Below are positions 4,207-20,512 of a stretch of 38,638 bases of DNA, piece after piece. Source of the stretch: Clostridium sp. CAG:1193. GTDB lineage: Bacteria > Bacillota_I > Bacilli_A > RF39 > UBA660. Where the stretch lies: positions 17,943 to 56,580 of the forward strand of contig HF990819.1 in the NCBI GenBank assembly GCA_000436255.1, read 5' to 3'. The position numbers and the translations under genes are program-made. Under the pieces are notes generated by a model. The model saw only the letters and a program-made list of their open reading frames with translations, did no database searches and was not told the origin of the DNA. Numbering within the stretch: position 1 is the stretch's first letter; each line of letters starts with the position of its first letter.

Positions 4207-6210
4207 GTGATAATATTGGCGTATAAATATGTTTATCAACATAATACCAATGATTGTGCGGTTGCATGTTTACTTTCTATAATTAGGTATTATAAAGGGA
4301 ATAATACTTATGAAAATATTCATTATTTAACACATTGTGATAATAATGGAGTAACTGCTTTAAATTTAATTAATGCAAGCAATAAGTTGGGTTTTGAAAG
4401 TAGGGGTTTAAAGGTTGAATATGCTCATTTAAAAAATTTAAAAATACCTATTATTGCACATTTAATTCTAAAGGATGGATATAATCATTATGTTGTAGTA
4501 GAAAAAATAAAAGAAAATACCATTTATATTTTTGATCCTGCAAAGGGGAAAATAAAATATAAAAAAGAAGAATTTTTAAAGTTATGGAGTAATGTAGTAA
4601 TAGAATTAAAACCTACTCGTGTATTAGATGTAATAAATGAAAAAGAGATTAACTTATTAATCGATATTATAAAAAATAACATAAGTACTTATTTAATAGT
4701 TTCCTTTGTTTCATTTTTAGCAATAATATTAACGTTAGTTTCTAATTATTACTTTAGTACACTTATTAAAAATAGTGCATTAAGTATATTAATATTTTTC
4801 TTGTTTATAACTTTTATTAAAGAAATAAATGATTATATAAGAGGATTAATAATAATTAAATTAGAAAGTAAAATAGAAAGTGATATTAATAAAACTACAC
4901 ATGAAAAATTGTTATTGCTCCCATATTATTATTTTAATAGTAGAACTACAGGTGATATTATTTCAAAGATGCAAGATTTAGATTATATTAAAGAACTTAT
5001 AATTAAAGTGCCTATCTATTTACTAATTGATATTACTCTTATGGTTTTATCTACAATTATACTTTTAAATATAAGTATTAAATTATATATAATATTTTTG
5101 TTTGTATGTTTATTATATTTTTTAGTGTTATTACTATTTGATAAAAAAATAAAAAAAATGATACGTATAAATCAAGAAAACAAAATAATAAATAATGAAA
5201 TATTAATAGAGAATATAAAATCTATAAACACGATTAAAAATTTAAATATAGAAAGTGTAAGAAATGATATATTTAATCAATCATATGATAGTTACCTTAA
5301 AGATAAAAAACGATATGAAAAAACAATTAATAAAGAATTATTCATAAGAAATTTAATAATACTTATGGGTTTAAATATTATACTTTATGTAGGCATAAAA
5401 ATAGTAGATCTTAAAGAATTAATACTTTTTGACTCAATTGCAATATATTTTTTAGAAGCCATTAAAAATATTTGTGAATTAAACCCATTATATAAGAATG
5501 CGATAAATGCGTTAAAAAGAGTCAAAGAGATATATAAAATTGATATTCCTTCCTATCAAAAATTAGAAATTGATAATTTTGATATTCATATAAATAATCT
5601 TAGTTATTCATATAATGGTTATAAAAATATTTTTAAAAACCTAAATTTAAATATATTAAGTAAAGAAAAAATTGCTGTAACAGGATTTTCTGGTTGTGGT
5701 AAAAGTACATTATTTAAATTAATAAATAAAACATATCAAATAGAAAATAACAAAATATTTATCGGGAAAACTGATATTAATAAGATAAATACAAGTGATA
5801 TAGTTTCTTATATATCACAAGAAGAAATATTATTTAAAGATACTTTATATAATAATTTAACATCATATAAAAATATTAAAAATGAGACTGTAATGAAAAT
5901 TAGTAAAATAACAGGTCTTGATAAAGTTATTAAAAGTAAAAATATGAATTTAAATAGTTTTATATTAGAAGATGGTATAAATTTTAGTAAAGGTGAAAAA
6001 CAAAAAATAATTTTGACAAGAGTTTTACTTAAAAATAATAATATATTAATATTAGATGAAGCATTAAATGCATTAGATGAAAGTGAAGAATGCAAGATAT
6101 TAAATAGAATTATAAAGTGTTATAGAAATAAAACAATTATTTATATAACACATAGGAAAAAATGTATTTCTTTATTTGATAGAGAAATAAAATTGAAAGG
6201 AGAGGTATGA
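4207..6210 (+). CDS. Bacteriocin/competence-peptide type ABC exporter with an N-terminal C39 double-glycine peptidase domain (LagD/ComA/PedD class)
   Basis: C39 motifs QHNTNDCAVACLLSII (Gln/Cys), HYVVVEKI (His) and DPAKG (Asp). A six-TM region follows. NBD has Walker A GFSGCGKST, Walker B ILILDEA and H-loop YITHR. TTG 4216 (aggggg RBS 8 nt upstream) is a plausible alternative start. Confidence 0.9.
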   Translation: MIILAYKYVYQHNTNDCAVACLLSIIRYYKGNNTYENIHYLTHCDNNGVTALNLINASNKLGFESRGLKVEYAHLKNLKIPIIAHLILKDGYNHYVVVEKIKENTIYIFDPAKGKIKYKKEEFLKLWSNVVIELKPTRVLDVINEKEINLLIDIIKNNISTYLIVSFVSFLAIILTLVSNYYFSTLIKNSALSILIFFLFITFIKEINDYIRGLIIIKLESKIESDINKTTHEKLLLLPYYYFNSRTTGDIISKMQDLDYIKELIIKVPIYLLIDITLMVLSTIILLNISIKLYIIFLFVCLLYFLVLLLFDKKIKKMIRINQENKIINNEILIENIKSINTIKNLNIESVRNDIFNQSYDSYLKDKKRYEKTINKELFIRNLIILMGLNIILYVGIKIVDLKELILFDSIAIYFLEAIKNICELNPLYKNAINALKRVKEIYKIDIPSYQKLEIDNFDIHINNLSYSYNGYKNIFKNLNLNILSKEKIAVTGFSGCGKSTLFKLINKTYQIENNKIFIGKTDINKINTSDIVSYISQEEILFKDTLYNNLTSYKNIKNETVMKISKITGLDKVIKSKNMNLNSFILEDGINFSKGEKQKIILTRVLLKNNNILILDEALNALDESEECKILNRIIKCYRNKTIIYITHRKKCISLFDREIKLKGEV

Positions 6211-6347
6211 AAGAATTAAACAATATTGAATTAAATAATATAAGTGGTGGTTTTAAATGGATAATAGGAGGTGTGATTGGTGGTATTTTAGCATTTATTG
6301 TAGGAGTATTAGATGGTTTTACAAGGCCATTAAAATGTAATAGTTAA
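6207..6347 (+). CDS. Double-glycine-leader peptide 1 (46 aa): MKELNNIELNNISGG / FKWIIGGVIGGILAFIVGVLDGFTRPLKCNS
   Basis: The ATG overlaps the exporter stop (ATGA). RBS aaaggagagg. The leader matches the ELxxIxGG consensus. The mature part is hydrophobic with GxxxG repeats. It is below the ORF-track size cutoff. Confidence 0.8.
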   Translation: MKELNNIELNNISGGFKWIIGGVIGGILAFIVGVLDGFTRPLKCNS

Positions 6348-6349
6348 TT

Positions 6350-6469
6350 ATGAGAGAGTTAAAAATAAATGAATTAAATAGTATAAGTGGTGGATGCATA
6401 ATATCACGCTATATATATAAGTTTATTATAAAAACATTCCGATTATTTTTTAAACCGACATTTATGTAA
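6350..6469 (+). CDS. Double-glycine-leader peptide 2 (39 aa): MRELKINELNSISGG / CIISRYIYKFIIKTFRLFFKPTFM
   Basis: It starts 2 nt after the peptide-1 stop, which suggests translational coupling; there is no SD of its own. The leader is nearly identical in pattern to peptide 1. The mature part is cationic and aromatic. Confidence 0.7.
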   Translation: MRELKINELNSISGGCIISRYIYKFIIKTFRLFFKPTFM

Positions 6470-6479
6470 AGGAGGAATT

Positions 6480-6635
6480 ATGGAACTTAATAAAAAAGAA
6501 TTAAATGATATTATTGGAGGTAGTATTTCTGGAAGTATTATATCGAGTATAGTAAGGGGTGGAATACTTATATTAGAACTTGGTAGAAGTTTTGGAAGTG
6601 CATTAAGAAGATTACTAAAGAAAAAATATTGCTAA
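6480..6635 (+). CDS. Double-glycine-leader peptide 3 (51 aa): MELNKKELNDIIGG / SISGSIISSIVRGGILILELGRSFGSALRRLLKKKYC
   Basis: Strong RBS aaggagg 5 nt upstream. Leader ELNDIIGG. The mature part is amphipathic and strongly cationic at the C-terminus. Confidence 0.8.
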   Translation: MELNKKELNDIIGGSISGSIISSIVRGGILILELGRSFGSALRRLLKKKYC

Positions 6636-6710: not shown

Positions 6711-6953
6711 ATGAATACTGATAAATTAAAGATAATAGTTAATGGAAAGACTATAGAATATGATATTGTAAAAATATTATTACCAACTAATGCAAAATAT
6801 AAATATATAGTATATAAAGATAATAAAGAAAATCTCTATTCATCTAGATTTGATGTTGATAATAATAATAATATTATCCTTTCAGATCTTAAGTATAAAT
6901 ATGAATTTGATTATGTAAATAGAATATTAAATGGTGATAACAATGAAAAATAA
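6711..6953 (+). CDS. Small soluble protein, DUF1292-like
   Basis: The pattern KIIVNGKTIEYDIV...KYKYIVYKDNKENLYSSRF...EFDYVNRIL resembles the two clear DUF1292 genes at 28042 and 30543. No TM segment is present. Confidence 0.45.
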   Translation: MNTDKLKIIVNGKTIEYDIVKILLPTNAKYKYIVYKDNKENLYSSRFDVDNNNNIILSDLKYKYEFDYVNRILNGDNNEK

Positions 6954-8223
6954 AAAAGTAAAAAATAATTGGTTTATTAGTATGTCTTCATGGCAAAAAG
7001 CTTTATTTGCAACTATAGTATCAGTAGATATTTTAGCTACAGGAGTAGCAGGACACCTTATATATGATTTATCAAAAGATAAAGAAAATAAAGAAGATAA
7101 TATAGATACTAAAGAAAGTATTGTTACATATGCACCAATTACAGAAGAAATGATTGAACTTCAAGTAACTGATCGTGATGAGTTAATGGAAGAGTATGAG
7201 TTAATAAATTCTAGTTTTTCTAAAGATACAAGTTGTTATAATTATGCTTTAGCATCTTCACCGGTATTTCCAATTAAAAATGTATGTACTAGTAGTGATA
7301 TTATGATGGAAGTATTTACTAAAAACTTAGATACTCCTTGTTTTCTTGATAACTTAAATATAGATGAAGTAGAATTTTATGAAGAACAAAAATCAAAAAT
7401 AATTGAAGAAGTAATAAAAGAGTATGATGCATATTTTCCTTTAAGTGAATCATCATACATTCCAGAAGAATTTTATAAAACGTGTGAAAAACATACATAT
7501 TTAGGAAATAGCCCAATAGAAGAAACTATAGTTATTGATAAAACAGAAGTAGATGATTCCATTTTAAATAAAGTATTAAATAATCAAGAATTAATGAGTA
7601 GTATTAATGAATGTAGTACAAAGTATAAAATCGATAAAAGCTTGCTTATTGCAGTTGCAACAGTTAATCTTGAAGTAAATGGAGAAGATGCTTTTCTTAA
7701 TAATCCAATGGGAATTGGTTTTCCATTAAAAGGCTTTAATTCGTGGATAGAACAATTTGATGAAAACGATAATTATACAAGTTTAAAAGATACTATATAT
7801 GGTGAGCAATTAACGAGATTTAAAAAAGAGTGTGAAAGTAATGGAATTATGGGTAATGTAGAGTTTGGTGCGATGATTATGCAGCATTGCCTTGATAATC
7901 CAGTTGAAGATTCTACTTTACTTCATAGTGTGTATTTATATTTTGATTATAAAAGTAATCCAGATAAAGCCCAGGCATTAACAAATAAAGCATTAAATTA
8001 TATGTTTAGATTAGCTAATGATAGTGAGATTAAATTACAATATTATATGCCTGTTGATGAACGTAATACAACTACACCATTAAATGAAAGATTTGCATAT
8101 AGAGTAGAGACTATAGTATCATCTGATATAAAAGAATACTTAGGGAATATGTATGATATGTATGCAAGAGTAACATATAATATGGCAAAAGAAAATACTA
8201 AAAATATGGTTGTTATAAAATAA
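6943..8223 (+). CDS. N-terminally membrane-anchored extracytoplasmic protein with a possible divergent GH73-type (glucosaminidase-like) motif
   Basis: TM segment WQKALFATIVSVDILATGVAGHLIY. The motif LLIAVATVNLEVNG-x6-NNPMGIG resembles the GH73 pattern AQAxLESGWG...NNxFGIK. ATG 6943 (ggtga RBS) is preferred over 6931. It overlaps the previous gene by 11 nt. Confidence 0.55.
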   Translation: MKNKKVKNNWFISMSSWQKALFATIVSVDILATGVAGHLIYDLSKDKENKEDNIDTKESIVTYAPITEEMIELQVTDRDELMEEYELINSSFSKDTSCYNYALASSPVFPIKNVCTSSDIMMEVFTKNLDTPCFLDNLNIDEVEFYEEQKSKIIEEVIKEYDAYFPLSESSYIPEEFYKTCEKHTYLGNSPIEETIVIDKTEVDDSILNKVLNNQELMSSINECSTKYKIDKSLLIAVATVNLEVNGEDAFLNNPMGIGFPLKGFNSWIEQFDENDNYTSLKDTIYGEQLTRFKKECESNGIMGNVEFGAMIMQHCLDNPVEDSTLLHSVYLYFDYKSNPDKAQALTNKALNYMFRLANDSEIKLQYYMPVDERNTTTPLNERFAYRVETIVSSDIKEYLGNMYDMYARVTYNMAKENTKNMVVIK

Positions 8224-8251
8224 AAAAAGAAAAAATTAATTTTCTTTTTTT
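8222..8251. terminator. Possible weak bidirectional hairpin between convergent genes
   Basis: aaaaaaagaaaa / ttttcttttttt inverted repeat, almost entirely A-T, so stability is low. Confidence 0.35.
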
Positions 8252-9684
8252 TATAAATCTAATACTTGAGTATCATCAAGAGATGGAGGTTTAATAATAG
8301 TTTGAACATTATTTACAGGTTCATTACTAACTGATGGGGTATCAGATTTGAATAAACTTTTCTCAGTTACAGGTGAATAAATTTTAGCACTATTTTTTAC
8401 ATCGTTAACATTAAGTTGACTAGTTTTAGATAATTCAGTTTGCTCAATTGCATTATGTAAGTCATACTTATATGCACTTGATGCATTTTTATCATCAGCA
8501 ACATCATCAAGTTCGATTAATTTAATTATTTCTTCAAAAGTGGTATATCCATTTATTACTTTTTCAAGACCATCTTGAAGTAGAGTATTAACATCAGTAT
8601 TGTATACTAAATTACGAAGTTCATCTTTAGGCATATTATTAGAAATTGCATCTCTTATTTCTTGGGTAATTAATAATACTTCATGAATTGCAATACGACC
8701 TCTATAACCACTTCCACATTCAGGACATCCAACTGCAGAATATATTTCATTTATTTCCATACCAAATACTTTTCTAAATATTTCTTTTTCATAACTATTA
8801 GTTGGTCTTTTTTTCTTACATTTATCACATAATTTTCTTGCTAGTTTCTGTGAAATTATTCCTTCAAGAGCACTTGCAAGTAAGTATCTTTCAACTTCCA
8901 TATCAAGTAAACGTTCAATTGTATTAAGTGAGTTATTAGTATGTATTGTTGATAATACTAAGTGACCAGTAATAGATGCTCTAACTGCTATTTTTGCTGT
9001 TTCATTATCACGAATTTCTCCGATCATTACTATATCTGGGTCTTGTCTTAATACAGAACGCAATACATTAGCAAATGTTAAACCAATTTCACTATTAACT
9101 TGAACTTGGTTAATTCCTTTTATATTCATTTCTATCGGATCTTCAACCGTAATAAGGTTAGTTTCAGTTCTATTTAATTTTTGTAAAATAGAGTATACAG
9201 TAGTAGATTTACCACTACCAGTCGCACCTGTAACTAATATTATACCAGAAGGTATATTTATAAGTTTTGAAATCTTTTTAAAGTTTCTTTCACTAAATCC
9301 TAAGTATTCAATACCTTTTAAACTCATCGAATAATCAAGAATACGAATAACTATTTTTTCACCTTCATTAGTTGGCAAAGAAGAAACACGGAGATCCAAA
9401 TTTTCTTCTTTAATAGTAGTTTTAATCGCACCGTCTTGTGGTAATCTTACTTCAGTAATATTCATACCAGACATAATTTTAATACGTGTAATCAAATTTT
9501 TCTTAAGAGTGTTTGGTATAGTTGTATAATCTGATAATAATCCGTCAATACGAATTCTAACTTTCATTTCATCTTCTTCAGGGTCAAAGTGAATATCACT
9601 AGCACCCCTTTTAGAAGCATCATAAAGTATTTCATTTACTACTTCAACTATAGGCAACTTCTCATAATCAAAAGTTTTAATCAT
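8251..9684 (-). CDS. pilB: GspE/PilB-family type IV pilus / type II secretion-like assembly ATPase (ComGA-like short form) with a C-terminal extension of about 83 aa
   Basis: ASDIHFDP, Walker A VTGATGSGKSTT, Asp/His boxes (IRDNETAKIAVRASITGHLVLSTIHTN) and a tetracysteine motif CDKCKKK...CPECGSGYRGR. RBS gggagg. Confidence 0.85.
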   Translation of the reverse strand: MIKTFDYEKLPIVEVVNEILYDASKRGASDIHFDPEEDEMKVRIRIDGLLSDYTTIPNTLKKNLITRIKIMSGMNITEVRLPQDGAIKTTIKEENLDLRVSSLPTNEGEKIVIRILDYSMSLKGIEYLGFSERNFKKISKLINIPSGIILVTGATGSGKSTTVYSILQKLNRTETNLITVEDPIEMNIKGINQVQVNSEIGLTFANVLRSVLRQDPDIVMIGEIRDNETAKIAVRASITGHLVLSTIHTNNSLNTIERLLDMEVERYLLASALEGIISQKLARKLCDKCKKKRPTNSYEKEIFRKVFGMEINEIYSAVGCPECGSGYRGRIAIHEVLLITQEIRDAISNNMPKDELRNLVYNTDVNTLLQDGLEKVINGYTTFEEIIKLIELDDVADDKNASSAYKYDLHNAIEQTELSKTSQLNVNDVKNSAKIYSPVTEKSLFKSDTPSVSNEPVNNVQTIIKPPSLDDTQVLDL

Positions 9685-9787
9685 AAACTGCCTCCCAATT
9701 TATTCTTTCTAAAATACCTATGGTATTTATTATAAATTTATTATATAATAATAGAGGAATAATATCAAGTAAGAATTTTGGGGTGAT

Positions 9788-12700
9788 ATGATGAAAAAAA
9801 AGAGAAATGGTTTCTTTTTGTCAGAAACAATGATAGTAATGACAGTCGTTGCAGTTGTTATATTAGGAGTATTTAAAGTATTCTCAAGTGTTTACACAAG
9901 ATATAAAGAAAGTGAGAACTATAATACAATAAATTCAATAAATGCTCTTTCAATATTAAACCAATACTATGACTCATATGATATTAATATATTAACTATA
10001 TTAAATGGAAATTATTATGTTGATTTAACTAACTTAGATACATATGAAAGTGAACATTATGACAATTTAAAAAGTACACTTAATGTAGATAAGGTGTATT
10101 TATTTGATGGAACTAAGTTATTTAGTGGAGAGAATATATATAATTTTGATCTAAATACAAGAAAGTACTTAAAAACATTAAGTAAGAAAAATTATGATAC
10201 TATGCTTGTAGTAAAACTAAAAAGTGAAGAGTATGCTAGTGTAGAAGTAAAAGGTAATGAAATAGTTACTTTAGTAGGAGACTCTAACGATGAATTTGTA
10301 ACGTATGTAGAGTTAAATACTGAGTTTTTTGATCCAGGATATATTAACTGGATTGGTGATAAACCTAAAATAACAGGATCAGTAGATACTACGAAAGAAG
10401 GAACATATTATTTAACATATGACTTTAATGGATATTTATTAAGAAGAAAAGTAATAGTAACAAAAGCTGTTTATAACTATGATTACACAGGTGGTGCTCA
10501 AACATTTACTGCACCATCTTCAGGATATTATAAATTAGAAACTTGGGGTGCTCAAGGTGGAACATCTTTAAATAATAATGTTCTTACAACACCAGGTGGA
10601 TATGGGGGATATAGTAAAGGAGTAGTTTATTTAAAAAAAGGTGAAACTGTATACATATATGTTGGTGGAAAAGGTCAAGATGGTACAAAAGGTAAAAATG
10701 CTACAGGGGGATATAATGGTGGTGGAAGTGGAACATGGGATACCACTGATGATGAAAGTGGTGGTGCAGGAGGAGGAGCCACACATATTGCAAAAGCATC
10801 AGGATTATTGTCATCATTAGAAAGTAACAAATCATCAATTTTAATAGTAGCTGGTGCAGGAGGAGGCTCTAGTTGGACATATGAAGTTGGACATGGTGGG
10901 GGCTTTACAGGAGTAGTGACTAAAACTACTAATCAATCAGTAGCAAATCAAGTAATGGGTTATGCATTTGGAAAAGGCCAAAATGCAACTGGTGTAGGTG
11001 CTAATGATGGAGTTGGTGGAGGAGGCGCTGGATATTATGGTGGATATTCAAACGATGTAAAAAACAAATCTGCCGGTGCTGGTGGTTCAGGGTACATTGG
11101 AAATGATTTATTAACAAATAAAGCAATGTATTGTTATGGGTGTGTAAATTCTACATCCCCAGATACATATACAGTATCAACTACAAATGTATCTGATACT
11201 GCAATCGAAAACTATGCTAAAAAAGGAAATGGTTATGCAAGAATAACACTTGCATATAAAGAAGAAAGTGAAGATGCTAAAACTTATAATTATACAGGTA
11301 ATGTTCAAACATATACAGTTCCTAAAACAGGTTGGTATAGAATAGAAGCATGGGGTGCAGCCGGTAATAACAATTATAGTGATTATGTAAAAACTTTAAT
11401 ACCAACAAAAGGTGGTTATACAAAAGGAGAAATTTACTTAACAAAAGATGAAAAACTTTATGTGTATGTTGGAGGTATAAGAGAAACATTTAACTGTTGT
11501 ACACAACAATCTGGTGTTGGTTCTGGTGGCGCTACTGACATAAGGCTAGTTAGTGGGGATTGGAATAATGCTGATTCATTAAGAAGTAGAATAATGGTTG
11601 CTGGTGGAGCTGGTGGCTCTTACCTTGATCCAAGTGCTCCAAGAGGCGGAAGTGCTGGTGGACTTATATCTGAAAATGTAATTTTAAGTTATGAAACAAC
11701 ACATCTTGCAGGGCCTACTACACAAACATCTAGTGGAGCTGCTGGTACTAGTGGATCAGTTGGTGGATTTGGATATGCCGGTACTGTAACAAATATAGCA
11801 TATAGCCCAGGTGGTGGTGGCTACTATGGTGGAAGTGGAGCAGCAGCAAGTGCAGGTGGTTCATCATTTATATCTGGATATGCTGGTGTTAATGCAATAG
11901 ATTCATCAGGAAATCACACAAATGATACAAAACACTATAGTGGTAAATACTTTATTAATGGAGAAATGCAAGCAGGAGTTAATTTAGAATCTGGTAAAGC
12001 AAGAATAACATATATAGGTGAAAATAAATCAACCAGAAATACGAAACTAGATAATGTAAGATATATAAAAGATTGTGTTTCAGGTAACCAAACTGATAGT
12101 ACAAATAGATGGAATGAAATACAAGCAATATATAATGGTAGCAACATTGCAAAAGGAAAAACTGCTACTATGGTAAGTGGTACTTTATCACTACCTGCAA
12201 AAATAACTGATGGAGATATAGGAAAATATGCTACAGGGAATGATTCATATAGTACTGGTAACTGTGTATTAATAGATTTAGGACAAAGCTATAATCTTGA
12301 TGAAGTTGCTGTATGGCGTAATTATGAAACAATATTTAATGCTACTAAAAATACAGTTACATCAGTATCAAGTGATAATACTAACTGGACTACTATAATA
12401 ACAGATAGTAAAATAGAAACTCCAGAAGGTAAAAGAATGACGGCATATTATTACGATAATGAACAAAATAATATATTAACTAATTATACTTTTAGTGATT
12501 ATACAAAAGTAGACTGGCCTTGGGATAAAACTTTAAATAGAAGTTTAGGAATTGTCCCTACAAATTGGTCTAGTTATAATAGTGGAGTAGAAGAACCTGA
12601 AAAAGGATATCATGCGAGATTTGATAATAGTCCATTTGGTTATAATATGGTGGTATTTCCTAATTTAAATTCATCTATAAATCAAACTGGAAGATGGATG

Positions 12701-13033
12701 GGTATATATATAAATAGCATTAATGCGAATGTAATAAAAGCAAATGCGACTTATGAAGTAGTTATGGATATTTATCCAACAATAAAAGAATTTACTGTAA
12801 CAGGTGGTATATGGCATAGTAATAAGAATACTCAAACTTATGAATTTTCTAGTGCATTCTTTACAATTGCCACATCAAAAGAAAATATAAATAAATGGAT
12901 AACTGTAAGAAGAGTAATTACAACACCTACAACTTTAAATGAATCTGCAGGAACTAATTTATTTATTTATGGTAATGCTGGAAAAGAAGGAACAGCATAC
13001 GTAAGAAATATAAAACTTAGAAGAGTGAGTTAA
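9788..13033 (+). CDS. Giant modular type IV pilin-like protein (1081 aa): prepilin signal, Ig-like module, two glycine-rich (ALK/LTK-type) domains, discoidin-like module and a C-terminal beta-sandwich-like module
   Basis: N-terminus MMKKKRNG|FFLSETMIVMTVVAVVILGVF gives Gly at -1, Phe at +1 and Glu at +5, followed by about 20 hydrophobic residues. Downstream modules are listed separately. Confidence 0.85.
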   Translation: MMKKKRNGFFLSETMIVMTVVAVVILGVFKVFSSVYTRYKESENYNTINSINALSILNQYYDSYDINILTILNGNYYVDLTNLDTYESEHYDNLKSTLNVDKVYLFDGTKLFSGENIYNFDLNTRKYLKTLSKKNYDTMLVVKLKSEEYASVEVKGNEIVTLVGDSNDEFVTYVELNTEFFDPGYINWIGDKPKITGSVDTTKEGTYYLTYDFNGYLLRRKVIVTKAVYNYDYTGGAQTFTAPSSGYYKLETWGAQGGTSLNNNVLTTPGGYGGYSKGVVYLKKGETVYIYVGGKGQDGTKGKNATGGYNGGGSGTWDTTDDESGGAGGGATHIAKASGLLSSLESNKSSILIVAGAGGGSSWTYEVGHGGGFTGVVTKTTNQSVANQVMGYAFGKGQNATGVGANDGVGGGGAGYYGGYSNDVKNKSAGAGGSGYIGNDLLTNKAMYCYGCVNSTSPDTYTVSTTNVSDTAIENYAKKGNGYARITLAYKEESEDAKTYNYTGNVQTYTVPKTGWYRIEAWGAAGNNNYSDYVKTLIPTKGGYTKGEIYLTKDEKLYVYVGGIRETFNCCTQQSGVGSGGATDIRLVSGDWNNADSLRSRIMVAGGAGGSYLDPSAPRGGSAGGLISENVILSYETTHLAGPTTQTSSGAAGTSGSVGGFGYAGTVTNIAYSPGGGGYYGGSGAAASAGGSSFISGYAGVNAIDSSGNHTNDTKHYSGKYFINGEMQAGVNLESGKARITYIGENKSTRNTKLDNVRYIKDCVSGNQTDSTNRWNEIQAIYNGSNIAKGKTATMVSGTLSLPAKITDGDIGKYATGNDSYSTGNCVLIDLGQSYNLDEVAVWRNYETIFNATKNTVTSVSSDNTNWTTIITDSKIETPEGKRMTAYYYDNEQNNILTNYTFSDYTKVDWPWDKTLNRSLGIVPTNWSSYNSGVEEPEKGYHARFDNSPFGYNMVVFPNLNSSINQTGRWMGIYINSINANVIKANATYEVVMDIYPTIKEFTVTGGIWHSNKNTQTYEFSSAFFTIATSKENINKWITVRRVITTPTTLNESAGTNLFIYGNAGKEGTAYVRNIKLRRVS
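10253..10471 (+). other. Ig-like module (DUF5011-like pattern) inside the giant pilin
   Basis: VTLVGD..FVTYVELNTEFFDPGY....ITGSVDTTKEGTYYLTY..........KVIV. The same pattern occurs at 17128-17352. Confidence 0.55.
10472..11257 (+). other. Glycine-rich domain copy 1 (Pfam Gly_rich / ALK-LTK glycine-rich-domain-like)
   Basis: YNYDYTGGAQTFTAPSSGYYKLETWGAQGG...PGGYGGYSKGVVYLKKGETVYIYVGGKG...GGYNGGGSG...GGAGGGATHI...ILIVAGAGGGS...GNGYARITLAY. Confidence 0.65.
11279..12019 (+). other. Glycine-rich domain copy 2
   Basis: KTYNYTGNVQTYTVPKTGWYRIEAWGAAG...KGGYTKGEIYLTKDEKLYVYVGG...GSGGATDIRL...RIMVAGGAGGS...PGGGGYYGGSG...SGKARITYIG. It is collinear with copy 1. Confidence 0.65.
12041..12410 (+). other. 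Discoidin / F5-8 type C-like (galactose-binding-like) module
   Basis: RWNEIQAI...ITDGDIGKYATGN...CVLIDLGQSYNLDEVAVWRNYE...SSDNTNWTTI. Confidence 0.5.
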
Positions 13034-13034
13034 T

Positions 13035-13994
13035 TTATAATACTTTCCATATAAAGAATATTATTGTAGATATAGATGCATGTAATATCCTTGAAATAAA
13101 ATATGGAAAGTATTTTATTTTTGTATCACTAATAATACTTAGTACTTGCATATGTACGGATAGCCCACCAAAAGAAATAAAAAATACAGAAATTAATGCT
13201 TGTTTATATAATGGTATTTTAAGCATACTTAAATATTTTAATCCTTGTGTCATTTCAAATATTCCATTAATTATTGATTTATAATAAGGACTAACACTTA
13301 AATTATTATTAATAAGAGTAGTCAGTACTAAAAATATAGTAACTGTGCCTAAAATTAGTAATAAAGTACTAATACTACTTGTTATAGCATTAGATAACAT
13401 TTGACCAAATGATTTATCAGTTCTAGAACTATTCATACTAATAATTGCATTTTTTAAAGATACTTTTGTAGTGTCTTTTTTCGATATATAATAATTTCTA
13501 AATATTAAACCAATAAATAAGTTTCCAATATAATGTGATATTAAAATACACATACCAATTTCTTTATTATTTAAGAAAGTTATTGAAAGGGTGCCTAGTA
13601 TAAATAATGGATTAGAAAAATGAGTAAATGTAAGAAGTTTAGTTGCTTCTTTATCATTGATTTCACCATTTAAATATAGTTCTTTAGTGTATTTAGCACT
13701 ACTAGGAAATCCACTTAAAATGCTTAATATAATTATAAATGCTCCAGTACCATTTATTTTAAATAATTTATACATAACATCTTTAAGAAGTGTACCAAGT
13801 AATTTGGGGAAACCTAAATCTATAAGTATATTTCCAATAACAAAAAATGGAAACAAAGATGGGAATATACTATTTTCCCATATATTAAATGAAAATTTAA
13901 CTGATTCTAAAACATCAGCACTTTCAATTAATACTTCTACACTTATTAATATCATTATTAAAAGAAGTAAAACATTTGATAATATTTTTTTCAT
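13035..13994 (-). CDS. ylbJ: Sporulation integral membrane protein YlbJ-like (nucleoside-recognition/Gate-domain family)
   Basis: Polytopic membrane protein with FNIWENSIFPSLFPFFVIGNIL. It sits next to a ylbL homologue, as in Bacillus. Confidence 0.65.
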   Translation of the reverse strand: MKKILSNVLLLLIMILISVEVLIESADVLESVKFSFNIWENSIFPSLFPFFVIGNILIDLGFPKLLGTLLKDVMYKLFKINGTGAFIIILSILSGFPSSAKYTKELYLNGEINDKEATKLLTFTHFSNPLFILGTLSITFLNNKEIGMCILISHYIGNLFIGLIFRNYYISKKDTTKVSLKNAIISMNSSRTDKSFGQMLSNAITSSISTLLLILGTVTIFLVLTTLINNNLSVSPYYKSIINGIFEMTQGLKYLSMLKIPLYKQALISVFFISFGGLSVHMQVLSIISDTKIKYFPYFISRILHASISTIIFFIWKVL

Positions 13995-14035: not shown

Positions 14036-15019
14036 ATGATTAGTAAATTATATTCAAAAATAAAAAATTTTTTAAAAGATAATATAATATATATTTTGTT
14101 AGTATTAATAACTATTACTATTTCTAATATACCAATGCCTTATCATATAGAAACTTATGGAGGATTAATTAATATTAAAAATAAAGTAATAGTAGATAAT
14201 GAATATGAAAGTATGGGCTCATATAATTTAACCTATGTTTCTGAGATAAAAAGTAATATTTTTACAGTACTTTTATCTAAATTTAATAAAGACTGGGATT
14301 TATATAAAAATGAAAATACTAAAGAAAAAGCATCTGATTTGAATTTAAGGGGAGAATTACTTTTATATAATTCATTTAGTAATGCCACGTATGTTGCATA
14401 TACATATGCGAAAGAAAAAATAAACATTGTATCATCAAGTGTATATGTTATTTATATAGACAAAGATGCATCTACTAACTTAAAAGTAGGAGATAAAATT
14501 AATTCTGTTAATGGCTTTGATATATCAAGTTTAAGTAATTATTTAAATGTTGTAGAAAATAGTAAAAAAGGTGATAAGTTAAAATTAATCGTTAATGATA
14601 ATGAAGAAAAATATATAGTGGTAAGTGAATATAATGGTAAAAAAAATACACTTATAGCTTTAATATGTAATAATTCATATGATAAGAACGTAACATTTAA
14701 TTTTAATAAAAATGAATCGGGCCCATCAGGAGGATTTATAATAGCACTTAGTATTTATGATAAATTAGTATCTGCTGATATATCTCGTGGGTATAAAATA
14801 TCTGGTACAGGAACAATTGATATAAATGGTTTAGTTGGAGAAATTGATGGTGTTAAATATAAATTAAAGGGCGCAGTTAAAAATAAAGCGGATATTTTCT
14901 TTGTTCCTGTTAATAATTATAATGAAGCAATTAAAGAAAAAAACGAAAACAATTATGATATAGACATAGTTAAAATATATAAATTTAGTGATGCGATTAA
15001 GTATTTAGAAAGTAAGTAA
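14036..15019 (+). CDS. ylbL: YlbL/SepM-family membrane protease (PDZ plus Lon-like S16 C-terminal domain)
   Basis: N-terminal TM segment and a PDZ-like region (LKVGDKINSVNG). Lon-C motif SGPSGGFIIALSIYDKL...ISGTGTIDINGLVGEIDGVKYKLKGA. Confidence 0.8.
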   Translation: MISKLYSKIKNFLKDNIIYILLVLITITISNIPMPYHIETYGGLINIKNKVIVDNEYESMGSYNLTYVSEIKSNIFTVLLSKFNKDWDLYKNENTKEKASDLNLRGELLLYNSFSNATYVAYTYAKEKINIVSSSVYVIYIDKDASTNLKVGDKINSVNGFDISSLSNYLNVVENSKKGDKLKLIVNDNEEKYIVVSEYNGKKNTLIALICNNSYDKNVTFNFNKNESGPSGGFIIALSIYDKLVSADISRGYKISGTGTIDINGLVGEIDGVKYKLKGAVKNKADIFFVPVNNYNEAIKEKNENNYDIDIVKIYKFSDAIKYLESK

Positions 15020-16968: not shown

Positions 16969-18297
16969 ATGAAGAATAATAAAGGAATGATATTATCAAC
17001 ATATGTATATATGTTACTTGTTTTTTTCTTATTACTACTAGGAACAATGTTAGTAGTTTTAAACAATACAAAATTACTTGCAGATAAATTAAAAGAAAAT
17101 GCAAAAGATAATCCAGCTATTAATAAAGATTTAGTAAGTCTAGTATTAAATGGTGATGATGAAATGGTAATTGTAAAAGGAGATACATTTATTGATCCAG
17201 GATATATAGCAAAAACGCAAAGTGGAAAAACTTTAACTGCGAAAGTAGAAGGAAATGTAGATACAAGCACAATTGGTGAATATATAATTACCTATACAAT
17301 AAAGTATAAGCAATTTAGTAAAATGATAACTAGAAAAGTATACGTTACAGGAGCAAGTACTAAAGATTACATTGAAAACTTATATAATGATGATGAAGCA
17401 AGAACAAAAAATGGGTTAAAGAAAGATAATACAAGTGATAAGAATATAAGGTATGAAGGATCTAACCCAAATAATTATGTAAAATTTAATGATGAATTAT
17501 GGAGAGTAATTGGAGTATTTGGTGACAATGTAAAAATAATAAGAAGTGAATCAATTGGTAAATTATCTTGGGATTCATCGGCATCAAATATATATAGCGG
17601 ATATGGAATAAACGAATGGAGTGCATCTGATTTAAAAGAATATTTAAATACAATGTATTATGGCGGTTCTACTGTAACTTGTTATGGAGGTCGTAATAAT
17701 GCAACAACAACATGTCCAACAGCAAGTTTGAGCGAAACTGCAAAATCAATGATAGATAACCATATATGGAATACGGGGGCAATAAATTACAAAAAAGATA
17801 CTACTATAATGAATCAACAAACATATCAATTAAATACAGTACCAGTTTACAATGCAGAAAGAGGTAATGAAAGTGGTAAAGTGTGTTCAAGTAGTTCTTA
17901 TTGCGTTGATACTGTACCAAGAACAACAAAATGGCAAGGCTATGTTGCATTACCATATGCGACTGACTGGGCATATGCAAGTAGTGAGGTCGCATGCAAA
18001 ACAGATATACATGCCGGATATGATGTTACAAACGATTCAGCAGATAATATGACATGTAAAAAGAATAACTGGATGCATTATGGTAGTACAGCAACTGACG
18101 GAATGTGGACAATATCTGCTTATGCTCCTACTGATGGTGCTTATGTTGTATGGCTTGTTTATGGCAATGGAGTTGTATCTCATAGTAATGCTGCTGGTCC
18201 TGCATATGTTTTTCCAACCACATATCTTAAATCTGACGTAAAAATAACATCTGGAAGTGGTACTAGTGCTGATCCGTATATATTATCAACAAGTTAA
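16969..18297 (+). CDS. Pilin-like / pseudopilin-like secreted protein (442 aa) with an Ig-like module; it lacks the conserved Glu5
   Basis: N-terminus MKNNKG|MILSTYVYMLLVFFLLLLGTMLVVL has a basic stretch, Gly, then about 25 hydrophobic residues, with Thr at +5. An Ig-like module at 17128-17352 is shared with the 1081-aa pilin. The C-terminal domain is Cys-containing. Confidence 0.7.
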   Translation: MKNNKGMILSTYVYMLLVFFLLLLGTMLVVLNNTKLLADKLKENAKDNPAINKDLVSLVLNGDDEMVIVKGDTFIDPGYIAKTQSGKTLTAKVEGNVDTSTIGEYIITYTIKYKQFSKMITRKVYVTGASTKDYIENLYNDDEARTKNGLKKDNTSDKNIRYEGSNPNNYVKFNDELWRVIGVFGDNVKIIRSESIGKLSWDSSASNIYSGYGINEWSASDLKEYLNTMYYGGSTVTCYGGRNNATTTCPTASLSETAKSMIDNHIWNTGAINYKKDTTIMNQQTYQLNTVPVYNAERGNESGKVCSSSSYCVDTVPRTTKWQGYVALPYATDWAYASSEVACKTDIHAGYDVTNDSADNMTCKKNNWMHYGSTATDGMWTISAYAPTDGAYVVWLVYGNGVVSHSNAAGPAYVFPTTYLKSDVKITSGSGTSADPYILSTS

Positions 18298-18313
18298 TAT
18301 ATTTATAAAAAGT

Positions 18314-18349
18314 AAAAGAATTTCTACTTAATGTTGAAATTCTTTTTTT
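18314..18349 (+). terminator. Rho-independent terminator
   Basis: aagaatttc / gaaattctt 9-bp stem, 11-nt loop, T7 run. Confidence 0.75.
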
Positions 18350-18390
18350 ATGTAAGTAGCGTCTATGGATAAAAAAGCGCATAAAAATAG

Positions 18391-18419
18391 TTGATATAAA
18401 AACAAACGTTTGGTATAAT
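18391..18419 (+). promoter_or_regulatory. Sigma-A type promoter for the dinD-like gene
   Basis: TTGATA, 17-bp spacer, TATAAT, with an upstream TG (tggtataat). Confidence 0.6.
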
Positions 18420-18443
18420 ACACGATAAGGGAGGTTTGTAAAA

Positions 18444-19271
18444 ATGAGTAGTATAGAAGAATATACAGAAAAAACTTTTGAAAGTATAAAACATATTGAT
18501 GAATTTGAAAATGAATTTTGGGAGGCAAGAGAATTAATGCCTTTACTAGAATATAGTAAATGGGAAAATTTTCATAAAGTTATAGTACGTGCAATGATTG
18601 CATGTGAAACTAGTAATAATAAAGTAAGCGACCATTTTCCTGAGTTCAGGAAAATGGTTGATATAGGTTCAAAGACAAAAAGAGAAACAATTGATTATCA
18701 TTTATCTAGGTATGCTTGTTATTTAATAGTGCAAAATGCAAATCCTAGAAAAAAATCAGTAGCGCTTGGACAAACATATTTTGCAATACAAACAAGGAAA
18801 CAGGAAATTACTGAATCAGAATATTCAAGATTAACTGAAGATGAAAAGAGATTATATACTAGAATTCTTGTTAATAATAAGAATAAATATTTATTTAAAA
18901 CTGCTAGAGAATCTGGAGTAGAAAATTTTGGTAAATTTAATAATTGTGGATATAAAGGGCTTTATAATGGAGAAACAGCTAAACAAATAGCAAAACGTAA
19001 AAATATAAAAGAAGATGAAGATATTCTTGATTATATGGGTAGTGAGGAATTAGGTGCAAATTTATTCCGTATTACACAAACAGAAGCCAAACTAAAAAAA
19101 GATAATATAGGTAATGAAGATGATGCTTGTTTAACTCACTATAATGTAGGTAAAACAGTTAGAAGGGCAATTGAAGAACTTGGTGGTAATATGCCGGAAA
19201 CTTTGCCAACTCCAGAAAAATTTATAAAAGTATTAGAAAAAGATGAATTACAAAAAATTGAAAACAATTAA
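18444..19271 (+). CDS. dinD: DNA-damage-inducible protein D (DinD) family protein
   Basis: FESIKHIDEFENEFWEARELMPLLEYSKWENFHKVIVRAMIACETS...SDHF matches the conserved DinD-family N-terminal pattern as I remember it. Length is about 275 aa. RBS gggagg. Confidence 0.75.
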   Translation: MSSIEEYTEKTFESIKHIDEFENEFWEARELMPLLEYSKWENFHKVIVRAMIACETSNNKVSDHFPEFRKMVDIGSKTKRETIDYHLSRYACYLIVQNANPRKKSVALGQTYFAIQTRKQEITESEYSRLTEDEKRLYTRILVNNKNKYLFKTARESGVENFGKFNNCGYKGLYNGETAKQIAKRKNIKEDEDILDYMGSEELGANLFRITQTEAKLKKDNIGNEDDACLTHYNVGKTVRRAIEELGGNMPETLPTPEKFIKVLEKDELQKIENN

Positions 19272-19440: not shown

Positions 19441-19491
19441 AATATTACAAACGAAATAATAAAATATTTTTGGTAAAATTAATAAGCAAAG

Positions 19492-19520
19492 TAGACTTTG
19501 TGTGAGTGATTTGGTATAAT
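19492..19520 (+). promoter_or_regulatory. Probable promoter of the T-box leader
   Basis: tagact, 17-bp spacer, tataat, preceded by TG (tttggtataat). Confidence 0.45.
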
Positions 19521-19740
19521 ACATGTATCTACTTTGAAGAAAAGGTTTTATTAAGCGAATTTAAAGAGAGTTAGTGGTTGGTGTAAACTAATAATTTGAT
19601 AATAAAATGTAGTTTCTGAGTATTATTACTGAGTTAAGTAAGTAATAACGTTATCTGCGTTAAAGAATAAAGTGCATAGAATCTATGAACTAAGGTGGTA
19701 CCGTTCTTATGAACCCTTAGATTATGGGTTCTTTTATTTT
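19521..19740 (+). promoter_or_regulatory. T-box riboswitch leader (tRNA-sensing transcription attenuator), probably valine-specific
   Basis: Stem I AGAGAG element at 19565-19570. Conserved T-box sequence aactaaGGTGGTACCG at 19688-19703. Terminator gaaccc/gggttc at 19711-19731 plus a T-run. valS lies downstream. Candidate specifier codons are GUA or GUU at 19609-19614; I have not folded this. Confidence 0.8.
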
Positions 19741-19750
19741 AGGAGGCTAT

Positions 19751-20512
19751 ATGTTAAATATAAGTGTTGCAAAAGATGCATTTGAAAAATATGTTAGTAA
19801 ATATGATATGACTGATCCAAAGGTAAAGTTAAAATATCATCATACGTATAGAGTATGTGAACAAAGTCTTAATATATCTAAAAGTTTAGGATTAAATGAA
19901 GAAGAGACTAATCTTGCATATGTTATAGCGCTTCTTCATGATATAGGTAGATTTAGACAAGAAGAAGTTTACCATACGTTTAATGATTTAAAAAGTATAG
20001 ATCATGCACTTTTAGGATGTACTATATTGTTTGATGAAGGGTTAATTAAAGAGTTTGTGAGTGATGAAAAGTATTATCCAGTTATTAAAGATGCAGTATT
20101 TAATCACAACAAATATAGTATTGATTGTGAAGATGAACATACTTTACAATGCAAAATAATAAGAGATGCAGATAAAATAGATATAATGTATGCGGCTATA
20201 GTAATTGGTGATATCGCACTTAAAGAAGATGATAGTGATATTAGTGATGAAGTTAAAAATGCATTTTTAAATGGTATTTCTATAAATCATTCGATGAAAA
20301 AAACAGTAAATGATTCAATAATTACAAGGCTTGCATTTGTTTATGATCTTAATTTCAAATATTCTTATGAATATTTTCGTGATAATAGATTTATAGATTT
20401 GTTTTATGAAAAATTAAAAAATAAAGAGAAATTTAAAGAATATATAGATATTATAAATAGTTATATAGAAAGGAAGTGTACGTATGCTAGAGGCAAAGTA
20501 TTCACACAGTAA
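19751..20512 (+). CDS. HD-domain metal-dependent phosphohydrolase
   Basis: H...HD motif: YHHTYRVCEQS...VIALLHDIGRF...DADKID. ATG 19751 has an aggagg RBS. The track start at 19724 lies inside the T-box terminator. Confidence 0.8.
   Translation: MLNISVAKDAFEKYVSKYDMTDPKVKLKYHHTYRVCEQSLNISKSLGLNEEETNLAYVIALLHDIGRFRQEEVYHTFNDLKSIDHALLGCTILFDEGLIKEFVSDEKYYPVIKDAVFNHNKYSIDCEDEHTLQCKIIRDADKIDIMYAAIVIGDIALKEDDSDISDEVKNAFLNGISINHSMKKTVNDSIITRLAFVYDLNFKYSYEYFRDNRFIDLFYEKLKNKEKFKEYIDIINSYIERKCTYARGKVFTQ

Follow-up and report, generated by a model that had tools for sequence, protein, structure and literature searches.

A 1081-residue protein of Clostridium sp. CAG:1193 is probably a modular type IV pilin with five cargo domains

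Can a protein of 1081 residues, which begins like a prepilin and then continues for ~920 residues of other domains, be a type IV pilin? The question is raised by the gene at 9788..13033 on the forward strand of a 38,638-nucleotide stretch of Clostridium sp. CAG:1193 (GenBank assembly GCA_000436255.1, contig HF990819.1, positions 17,943 to 56,580; referred to as the window). A preliminary description, made from the letters of the window alone, had read this gene product (the target) as a modular type IV pilin with adhesive modules, and family membership, synteny and the N-terminal motif all support this core reading. We conclude that the target is probably a modular type IV pilin, acting as a subunit of a minimal type IV filament (T4F) built from core components only. 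Its open reading frame (ORF) is uninterrupted over 1081 codons, and identical copies of the same gene were present on the independent human-gut metagenome contigs L019, L020 and L022, while the 90% cluster of the target holds 160 member sequences. The window has a G+C content of 25.8%, and its housekeeping and sporulation genes are those of a low-GC organism of Bacilli type. The use of genetic code 4 was rejected, because under table 11 the long ORFs are intact and TGG encodes Trp.

The N-terminus, MMKKKRNG followed by FFLSETMIVMTVVAVVILGVF, consists of a basic, hydrophilic leader ending in Gly8 (–1), followed by Phe9 (+1), Glu13 (+5) and an uncharged hydrophobic run of ~21 residues, and thus has every element of the class III (prepilin) signal described earlier. 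In a strict six-frame scan of the window for the class III motif this site was the sole match, and a looser ORF-based scan added a single protein, encoded by ORF 16969..18297, with Thr at +5. The true start of the target may be the second ATG, at 9791, which is better spaced from the Shine-Dalgarno-like sequence and shortens the leader by one Met only. Scanning 9600-13200 for promoters and terminators yielded counts at or below shuffled expectation and was uninformative. The N-terminal segment is the only hydrophobic stretch of the protein (the Kyte-Doolittle maximum elsewhere is 0.86). Moreover, the protein has no LPXTG motif and no wall-binding domain, and no Cys occurs within residues 1-448, so that a lipobox is missing as well. 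Together, this indicates that the N-terminal segment is the sole anchoring or targeting device of the target.

Homologues of residues 1-157 were collected with a profile (A1) built from this part of the target and ten close relatives (11 sequences), which was searched exhaustively against 1.84 billion representative proteins; an earlier word-indexed search with residues 1-226 had returned 4 proteins and was too insensitive. With the A1 profile, 1371 proteins were found at E<=1e-3 (454 at E<=1e-10); they are referred to as class A. Nearly all alignments began at residue 1 of the matched protein, and many of these proteins are stand-alone pilin-sized polypeptides of 150-175 aa, which have no Pfam annotation and bear the source name 'hypothetical protein [Bacilli bacterium]'. 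Among 233 members that were inspected, 119 have at most 200 aa, 66 have 201-400 aa, 43 have 401-700 aa and five are longer. The pattern x-[F/Y]-x-x-x-E lies near the N-terminus in 230 of them (the other three are truncated gene calls), with Gly (225), Ala (4) or Ser (1) at –1, and Phe occupies +1 in 218. The preliminary description had taken homologues consistently devoid of G-F-x-x-x-E as evidence against its reading, and the homologues were instead found to keep it. Class A proteins further share a Y-N-T motif, located ~37 residues after the start of the mature protein, and most have a Cys pair, which the target lacks.

When the class A profile was compared with PDB sequences, Geobacter PilA-N pilins took the first two places and a type IV PilA a lower one (E 0.016-1), and all pilin matches were confined to the N-terminal part of the first helix (alpha1N). 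Alignment with hhalign to the class B pilins from class A loci (described below) gave a probability of 94.7 over the same 43 columns. Identity with a Com pilin was rejected, as the target did not match the NCBIfam ComGC-GG equivalog models; stand-alone class A members reached 14-16 bits with ComGE and ComGD via alpha1N only, where the cut-offs are 49-70. Residues 1-157 thus genuinely belong to a family of pilin size in which the class III signal is invariant. An AlphaFold2 model of residues 1-159, based on a 52-sequence alignment, was in turn confident (pLDDT 89.3, pTM 0.78) and showed a helix from 7 to 42, a short break at the E-N-Y-N-T motif and a second helix from 48 to 63, which together comprise ~55 mature residues and approximate the canonical length of alpha1. 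The head that follows is predicted as a four-stranded sheet with intervening helices.

The position of the gene provided what we regard, at the level of sequence, as the decisive evidence for pilin identity. As noted earlier, a PilB-like T2SSE ATPase gene lies divergently from the target gene, and the order ATPase (–), class A pilin (+), ylbJ (–) and sepM-like gene (+) is the same in the window and in the related loci L007, L008, L009 and L012. The ATPase adjoins a class A gene divergently in 20 of the 21 fetched loci, which include some redundancy (L001, L007-L015, L017 and L021-L030; the exception is L016), and is 70-86% identical to that of the window. The gene in this slot encodes 165, 167, 176, 228, 507/510, 537, 604, 616/619 or 1081 aa, while the L016 gene encodes 955 aa. 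Because the synteny of the slot is conserved, the target is the positional orthologue of a small (165-aa) pilin to which ~920 C-terminal residues have been added.

The small-pilin loci also reveal the machinery to which the slot belongs. In L007 and L009, genes for a T2SSF platform protein (608-628 aa) and a Peptidase_A24 prepilin peptidase (258 aa), both on the plus strand, precede the T2SSE ATPase (–), which is followed on the plus strand by the class A pilin (165-167 aa) and a second pilin (168 aa) that passes the N_methyl cut-off, and then by ylbJ (–) and the sepM-like gene (+). The platform and peptidase genes lie directly upstream in three loci of two lineages (L007, L009 and L017/L030). 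Neither PilMNO nor PilT was present in any locus examined, and pilMNO was likewise missing from the window and from 10 kb beyond either end, and the machinery of the relatives comprises core components only, in the sense of Pelicic's review. The best NCBIfam matches of the window ATPase were GspE and PilB (~485 bits each), and its Walker A and two CxxC motifs are intact, as is the His box; an N1 domain is missing, the alignments starting at position 106 of the GspE profile and position 177 of the PilB profile.

Downstream of the pilin module, the target contains an Ig-like domain, two glycine-rich domains (GRDs) of the type known from the animal receptor kinases ALK and LTK, and two beta-sandwiches (D5 and D6). 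The GRDs were identified by PF12810, which scored 249.6 bits against a cut-off of 24.5 (Pfam E 5e-74) in two stretches and matched profile positions 6-242 of 243, and they form an internal repeat of 38% identity. The full protein gave no match to PDB sequences at E<=0.01 with phmmer. A model of residues 746-1081, of moderate confidence (pLDDT 67), contained two beta-sandwiches for which Foldseek returned the carbohydrate-binding modules (CBMs) CBM16, CBM4, CBM22, CBM61 and CBM6 (probability 1.0, E ~1e-6). The cargo had been described beforehand as carbohydrate-binding in appearance, which fits D5-D6 as modelled but not the ~520 of the ~920 extra residues that make up the two GRDs. The target thus joins a pilin module to domains that are not specific to type IV pili (T4P), namely two PF12810 domains above the cut-off and Ig-like and CBM-like domains, and such a combination characterises modular pilins.

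The same modules recur elsewhere. D5 is carried by 23 homologous proteins, some of which have tandem copies (three in P0003), and P0031, a protein with a class C leader (see below), carries a D5-D6 pair 41% identical to that of the target; cargo modules seem, from these sequences, to move between carriers. The 103 longer class A members bear GRDs (30), DUF285 (11), Ig-like (9), Flg_new (6) or MucBP (5) domains, and further Laminin_G_3, lectin, LRR and TSP1 domains. The two alleles P0001 and P0002 are 83% identical overall in a mosaic manner: the pilin module (97%), the Ig-like domain, GRD2 and D5 lie at 92-98%, while residues ~300-420 of GRD1 fall to 40-60% and D6 to 77%, which suggests local diversifying selection or cassette exchange in the cargo. 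The pilin module, nearly invariant while parts of the cargo drop to 40-77%, is apparently under strong constraint. In the clade with the N-terminal signature GFFLSETM, whose loci carry the enlarged genes, Gly–1, Phe+1 and Glu+5 are strictly kept and the ATPase is 77-86% identical with intact motifs. The conserved ATPase, the retained signal residues and the constant pilin module next to variable cargo argue against decay of the system.

Besides class A, the related loci hold up to two other pilin classes. Class B proteins start their mature sequence with GFTLVELIAS… and pass the N_methyl cut-off (27-29 bits). Class C proteins follow the signature KG[MI][IV]LS.Y.Y…, lack Glu5, and have an alpha1 that runs directly into an Ig-like domain; they are found inside the pilin cluster in L001, L014, L015 and L023, and the versions of 738-743 aa in L001 and L015 carry GRD and lectin domains. 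ORF 16969..18297 of the window belongs to this class and is probably a partner or cap subunit. We rejected the idea that the 228-aa and 738-aa genes of L001 are one frameshifted copy of the target, since the 738-aa gene has a class C leader of its own, 48% identical to window ORF 16969..18297.

Further pilin-like proteins are dispersed. In L010, a lone canonical pilin of 115 aa with two Cys (19466-19813; MKKNG/FTLVELLAV…, cleavage at the slash) lies after era-recO-glyQS at a distance of 9.5 kb from the class A gene and is a candidate major pilin encoded off the ATPase locus; it shows that these genomes have dispersed pilin genes. Many GRD homologues bear canonical KGFTLVELLAV leaders, and some of these pass TIGR02532 (e.g. 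P0017 and P0089). L005 (3849-17709) contains nine tandem GRD paralogues with such leaders, and L003 (560-23075) contains six proteins with class III leaders within 23 kb, carrying Flg_new, Gly_rich_2 or Gp10_C as cargo. These large proteins with KGFTLVELLAV leaders (L005, L003 and L002 7272-13630) lie amid housekeeping genes, far from pilus machinery.

How, then, might such a protein work? The prepilin would enter the membrane via its only hydrophobic segment, alpha1N, after which a PilD/ComC-type A24 peptidase would cut the leader behind Gly8 and methylate Phe9. The first helix with its Glu5 would then dock the subunit into a filament, the extrusion of which would be driven by a PilC-like platform and the PilB-like ATPase encoded next door, and the filament would display the ~920-residue cargo, in the order Ig-like, GRD, GRD, CBM-like, CBM-like, beyond the cell wall as an adhesin for a host or diet glycan or protein in the human gut. 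The likeliest function is that of a pilus-displayed, probably tip-located, glycan-binding adhesin. In modular pilins it is the pilin module that polymerises; they are minor subunits, thought to be exposed at the tip (PMC8179133), and tip complexes have as their cap a subunit without the Glu5 that serves in subunit docking and polymerisation (PMC10191384). Given the ~100-kDa cargo, the behaviour of known modular pilins and the Glu5-less class C protein that accompanies it, the target is, most likely, not the major subunit but one of low abundance, placed at the tip of the filament or close to it. The class III signal and its conservation, the pilin-sized family, positional orthology, the linked ATPase and the nature of the cargo domains are directly supported for the target, and linkage to platform and peptidase is seen in its relatives; cleavage, methylation, polymerisation, tip location and the type of ligand are what we infer from them.

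Several observations weigh against a modular pilin in a working filament. The check by hidden Markov models (HMMs) that the preliminary description had proposed failed, as the target scored 14.8 bits against the PF07963 cut-off of 21.2 (E 0.022) and TIGR02532 gave no report at E<=1; stand-alone class A members are likewise below both cut-offs. Since both signatures fail, HMM criteria taken on their own would lead one to reject the pilin call. The check by AlphaFold proposed alongside it was answered in part, with a confident alpha1 helix and an alpha/beta head, but Foldseek of the pilin-module model against the PDB returned nothing below E=1, pilins included, and the modelled head therefore looks unlike that of any solved pilin. 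As for the locus, tblastn with the L007 PilC and PilD probes found neither gene in the window or in 10 kb beyond either end (L018, L019), nor did it ever find pilC or pilD within 10 kb in the loci of the GFFLSETM clade, and a class B or small canonical pilin is missing from the window and from 10 kb on either side. Finally, the ~100-kDa cargo would have to pass the peptidoglycan, and we know of no pilin that bears cargo this large. The census extreme for modular pilins is 860 aa (PMC8179133).

These points leave room for other explanations. The processed class III N-terminus could serve mainly to keep the adhesin membrane-bound, or seated in a short pseudopilus stub that is pushed through the wall by the ATPase, as in the pseudopili of the type II secretion system (T2SS) or in the archaeal bindosome, so that the cargo is displayed without a long filament. 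The N-terminal helix is indeed the sole anchor, in a protein devoid of LPXTG, lipobox and wall-binding domain; the machinery is minimal, as PilMNO and PilT are absent from every locus; and the many large class III-leader proteins of the relatives, whether scattered or arrayed (nine in L005, six in L003), resemble a general display route more than they do filament subunits. However, the ATPase fits PilB/GspE far better than BasE (34.8 bits for bindosome_BasE against a cut-off of 1000), the slot of the relatives holds ordinary 165-aa pilins, and Glu5 is kept in essentially all class A members, which makes display without a long filament unlikely.

A bolder idea, and one that we consider rather unlikely, is that the minimal filament has class A as its principal subunit and not as a rare one at the tip, that this subunit has expanded in the lineage from 165 to 1081 residues to give a thick 'bottle-brush' pilus, and that the prepilin pathway is a general display route for giant adhesins. 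If true, each subunit of such a pilus would bear two ALK-type GRDs and two lectin-like domains, and uncultured gut Bacilli would display a large, fast-evolving repertoire of giant adhesins via the prepilin pathway. If true, either of these, the giant major pilin or the prepilin pathway as a general display route, would be of much greater interest than the reading that we prefer. Taken by itself, the proposal that class A forms the main subunit of a thick, brush-like filament with 920-residue cargo on every subunit, for which giant flagellins offer an analogy, agrees with the constant position of class A next to the ATPase as the first gene after the divergent promoter region, with the presence of only two pilin genes (A and B) at the L007 and L009 loci, and with the absence of class B from the window locus, where only class A and the Glu5-less class C were found in ~58 kb. 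Yet a slot gene that varies from 165 to 1081 aa among close relatives, with mosaic cargo, is typical of accessory adhesive subunits, and known modular pilins are minor subunits. Because small canonical pilins, such as that of L010, sit elsewhere in related genomes, the major pilin could moreover lie outside the window. A giant major pilin is thus distinctly unlikely.

That the clade has lost its filament machinery and that the N-terminus is a relic, serving as the uncleaved type II signal anchor of a membrane-tethered adhesin, would account for the failing signature HMMs, the missing class B gene of the window and the lack of pilC and pilD in the vicinity of the ATPase, both in the window and in every GFFLSETM-clade locus, but is very improbable given a clade ATPase with intact motifs, the strict retention of Gly–1, Phe+1 and Glu+5, and a pilin module that is 97% identical between P0001 and P0002 where parts of the cargo are 40-77% identical.

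Read as a modular pilin in a core-components-only filament, the target has clear precedents. Raynaud et al. (2021; PMC8179133) defined modular pilins, counted >1200 of them in 264 architectures, and predicted that this census was an underestimate. Like PilB (with a vWA domain) and PilC (with a lectin domain) of Streptococcus sanguinis (PMC8179133, PMC9934059), the target combines a class III signal and a small pilin module with grafted adhesive domains that are not pilus-specific, and it resembles the S. sanguinis T4P further in its monoderm host, its non-canonical partner pilin and its predicted tip display. In contrast to the single module of those proteins (~300-400 aa), the cargo of the target comprises five domains in ~920 aa, of ALK-type GRDs and CBM-like sandwiches, on a carrier family that is unannotated and fails PF07963; the machinery of its relatives is core-only, without PilMNO or PilT. 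Dataset S1 of the same census contains the architectures IPR012902-PF12810 and IPR012902-PF12810x3, that is, a prepilin N-terminus with one or three PF12810 domains (PMC8179133). The preliminary description had not recognised the architecture as described; PF12810 modular pilins were, however, already listed there, and many canonical-leader GRD homologues exist. Unlike the target, those entries were found by the canonical N_methyl signature, which the class A module escapes, and were never characterised; the target also adds Ig-like and CBM-like domains.

The Com pilus, the minimal T4F (PMC10191384), offers a parallel for the relatives' locus, which encodes only pilins, peptidase, ATPase and platform, with an ATPase that lacks N1 as in ComGA and one pilin class that lacks Glu5, as does the capping subunit. 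However, GspE/PilB and GspF/PilC fit the ATPase and platform with higher scores than ComGA/ComGB do (all below the equivalog cut-offs), the pilins miss the ComGC-GG models, and the platform, at 608-628 aa, has an extra N-terminal region. We know of no Com pilin with cargo of the kind carried by the target. CofB and TcpB of type IVb pili, and PilY1/PilC, likewise present a large adhesive or adaptor protein at the filament tip. CofB has ~500 aa and specific domains of its own, whereas PilY1, which does not belong to the pilins, uses a beta-propeller for docking. Dataset S2 of Raynaud et al. (2021) includes a PilY1 architecture containing PF12810 (PMC8179133).

With the animal receptor kinases ALK and LTK the target shares GRDs, as two full-length PF12810 sequence matches with 19-22% Gly, here in a bacterial surface protein and not in a receptor kinase. 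The archaeal bindosome, whose sugar-binding substrates have class III signals, also brings out large, non-filament-like binding proteins with prepilin-type leaders, and is a possible parallel for the paralogue expansions in the relatives; it differs in belonging to another domain of life, in an ATPase whose BasE model the window ATPase fails, and in carriers that provide a leader alone instead of a complete pilin module.

The target is therefore an extreme example of the known modular-pilin strategy and not a new kind of system. The novelty lies in degree and in details: a carrier family invisible to the signature used by Raynaud et al., a five-domain cargo of 920 residues, an orthologue series from 165 to 1081 aa, and cargo mosaicism between alleles. 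Because standard signatures miss the class A family, gut-microbiome censuses of type IV and modular pilins undercount its >1300 members, which occur in uncultured human-gut Bacilli. One chromosomal slot occupied by proteins of 165, 228, ~510, ~610, 955 or 1081 aa is a clean example of module grafting onto a pilin, and the mosaicism of the cargo suggests selection on binding specificity. Bacterial GRDs of the ALK/LTK type are hereby placed in a concrete, testable context of surface display. If the target is truly polymerised, it extends the known size limit of pilin subunits and raises the question of how ~100 kDa of cargo crosses a Gram-positive wall.

Table 1. Positions in the window of the target gene, its parts and the neighbouring features
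Feature	Coordinates	Strand	Remarks
Modular pilin gene (class A pilin module and five cargo domains)	9788..13033	+	1081 aa, TAA stop
Leader peptide MMKKKRNG	9788..9811	+	Predicted prepilin-peptidase cleavage after Gly8
alpha1N, FFLSETMIVMTVVAVVILGVF	9812..9874	+	Phe+1, Glu+5, uncharged hydrophobic segment
Class A pilin module, residues 1-157	9788..10258	+	alpha1 and alpha/beta head; conserved Y-N-T motif at residues 45-47
Ig-like linker domain, residues 158-228	10259..10471	+	PF16403 19.2 bits vs cut-off 27; clear in homologues of the same layout
ALK/LTK-type glycine-rich domain 1 (GRD1), residues 229-492	10472..11263	+	22% Gly; PF12810 at 244-488, profile 6-242 of 243
ALK/LTK-type glycine-rich domain 2 (GRD2), residues 493-745	11264..12022	+	19% Gly; second PF12810 stretch
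D5 beta-sandwich, residues 746-905	12023..12502	+	Resembles F5/8 type C and NedA galactose-binding domains; PF22633 23.1 bits vs cut-off 27.8
D6 C-terminal beta-sandwich, residues 906-1081	12503..13030	+	Rare; common to P0002 and class C carrier P0031
Divergent intergenic region, 103 bp	9685..9787	.	Shine-Dalgarno-like GGGGTGA at 9780-9786
T4F extension ATPase (PilB/GspE/ComGA type)	8251..9684	-	T2SSE, Pfam E 1e-128; divergent from target
ylbJ	13035..13994	-	Slot neighbour of target
sepM-like gene	14036..15019	+	Slot neighbour, beyond ylbJ
Class C pilin-like protein, 442 aa, KG/MILSTYVY…	16969..18297	+	Thr for Glu at +5; alpha1 straight into Ig-like domain, cargo

Some minor features of these loci were also recorded. 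The window ATPase ends in a low-complexity C-terminus of ~85 aa (residues ~393-477) that is poorly conserved in relatives. In the T2SSF platforms of L007 (5645-7471) and L009 (3314-5200), the GspF/PilC-like region begins only at ~residue 200 and is preceded by a hydrophobic N-terminal extension that has no counterpart in ComGB or PilC. The class A gene beside the ATPase in L028 (3876-4266) looks frameshifted, with tblastn splitting it at ~residue 89, and is either a pseudogene or an assembly error on this 4.3-kb contig. The class C ORF and an ORF with a Bro-N domain (18444-19271) together form an insertion relative to L012 (window 16969-19271). In L022 (7868-9275), from the same species, class C matches only in its first 129 aa (99%) and last 28 aa (82%), so that class C cargo seems to be swapped between strains. 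P0005, P0006, P0038, P0046, P0083 and other GRD proteins have a different recurrent leader, e.g. MKKTTILIIVVLFMVIGYAAYNTTINIYGNG or …AYMAPNINNTE; the guess that these non-pilin leaders are of the SipW/TasA type found no NCBIfam match and is unsupported.

Convergent with the ATPase gene lies a 430-aa ORF (6931-8223) with one N-terminal transmembrane segment and no family match, which is found only in this species (L019-L021); L001 has a methyltransferase at the same position. An ABC exporter with a C39 peptidase (4207-6210) is followed by three small ORFs with double-glycine leaders, at 6207-6347 (…NISGG), 6350-6469 (…SISGG) and 6480-6635 (…DIIGG). The region 4207-6635 looks like a class II bacteriocin export cluster, and L001, L019 and L020 have it conserved upstream of the ATPase. 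At the start of the window, no cohesin being seen within it, an ORF at 41-577 carries two type I dockerin repeats (PF00404, E 3e-32).

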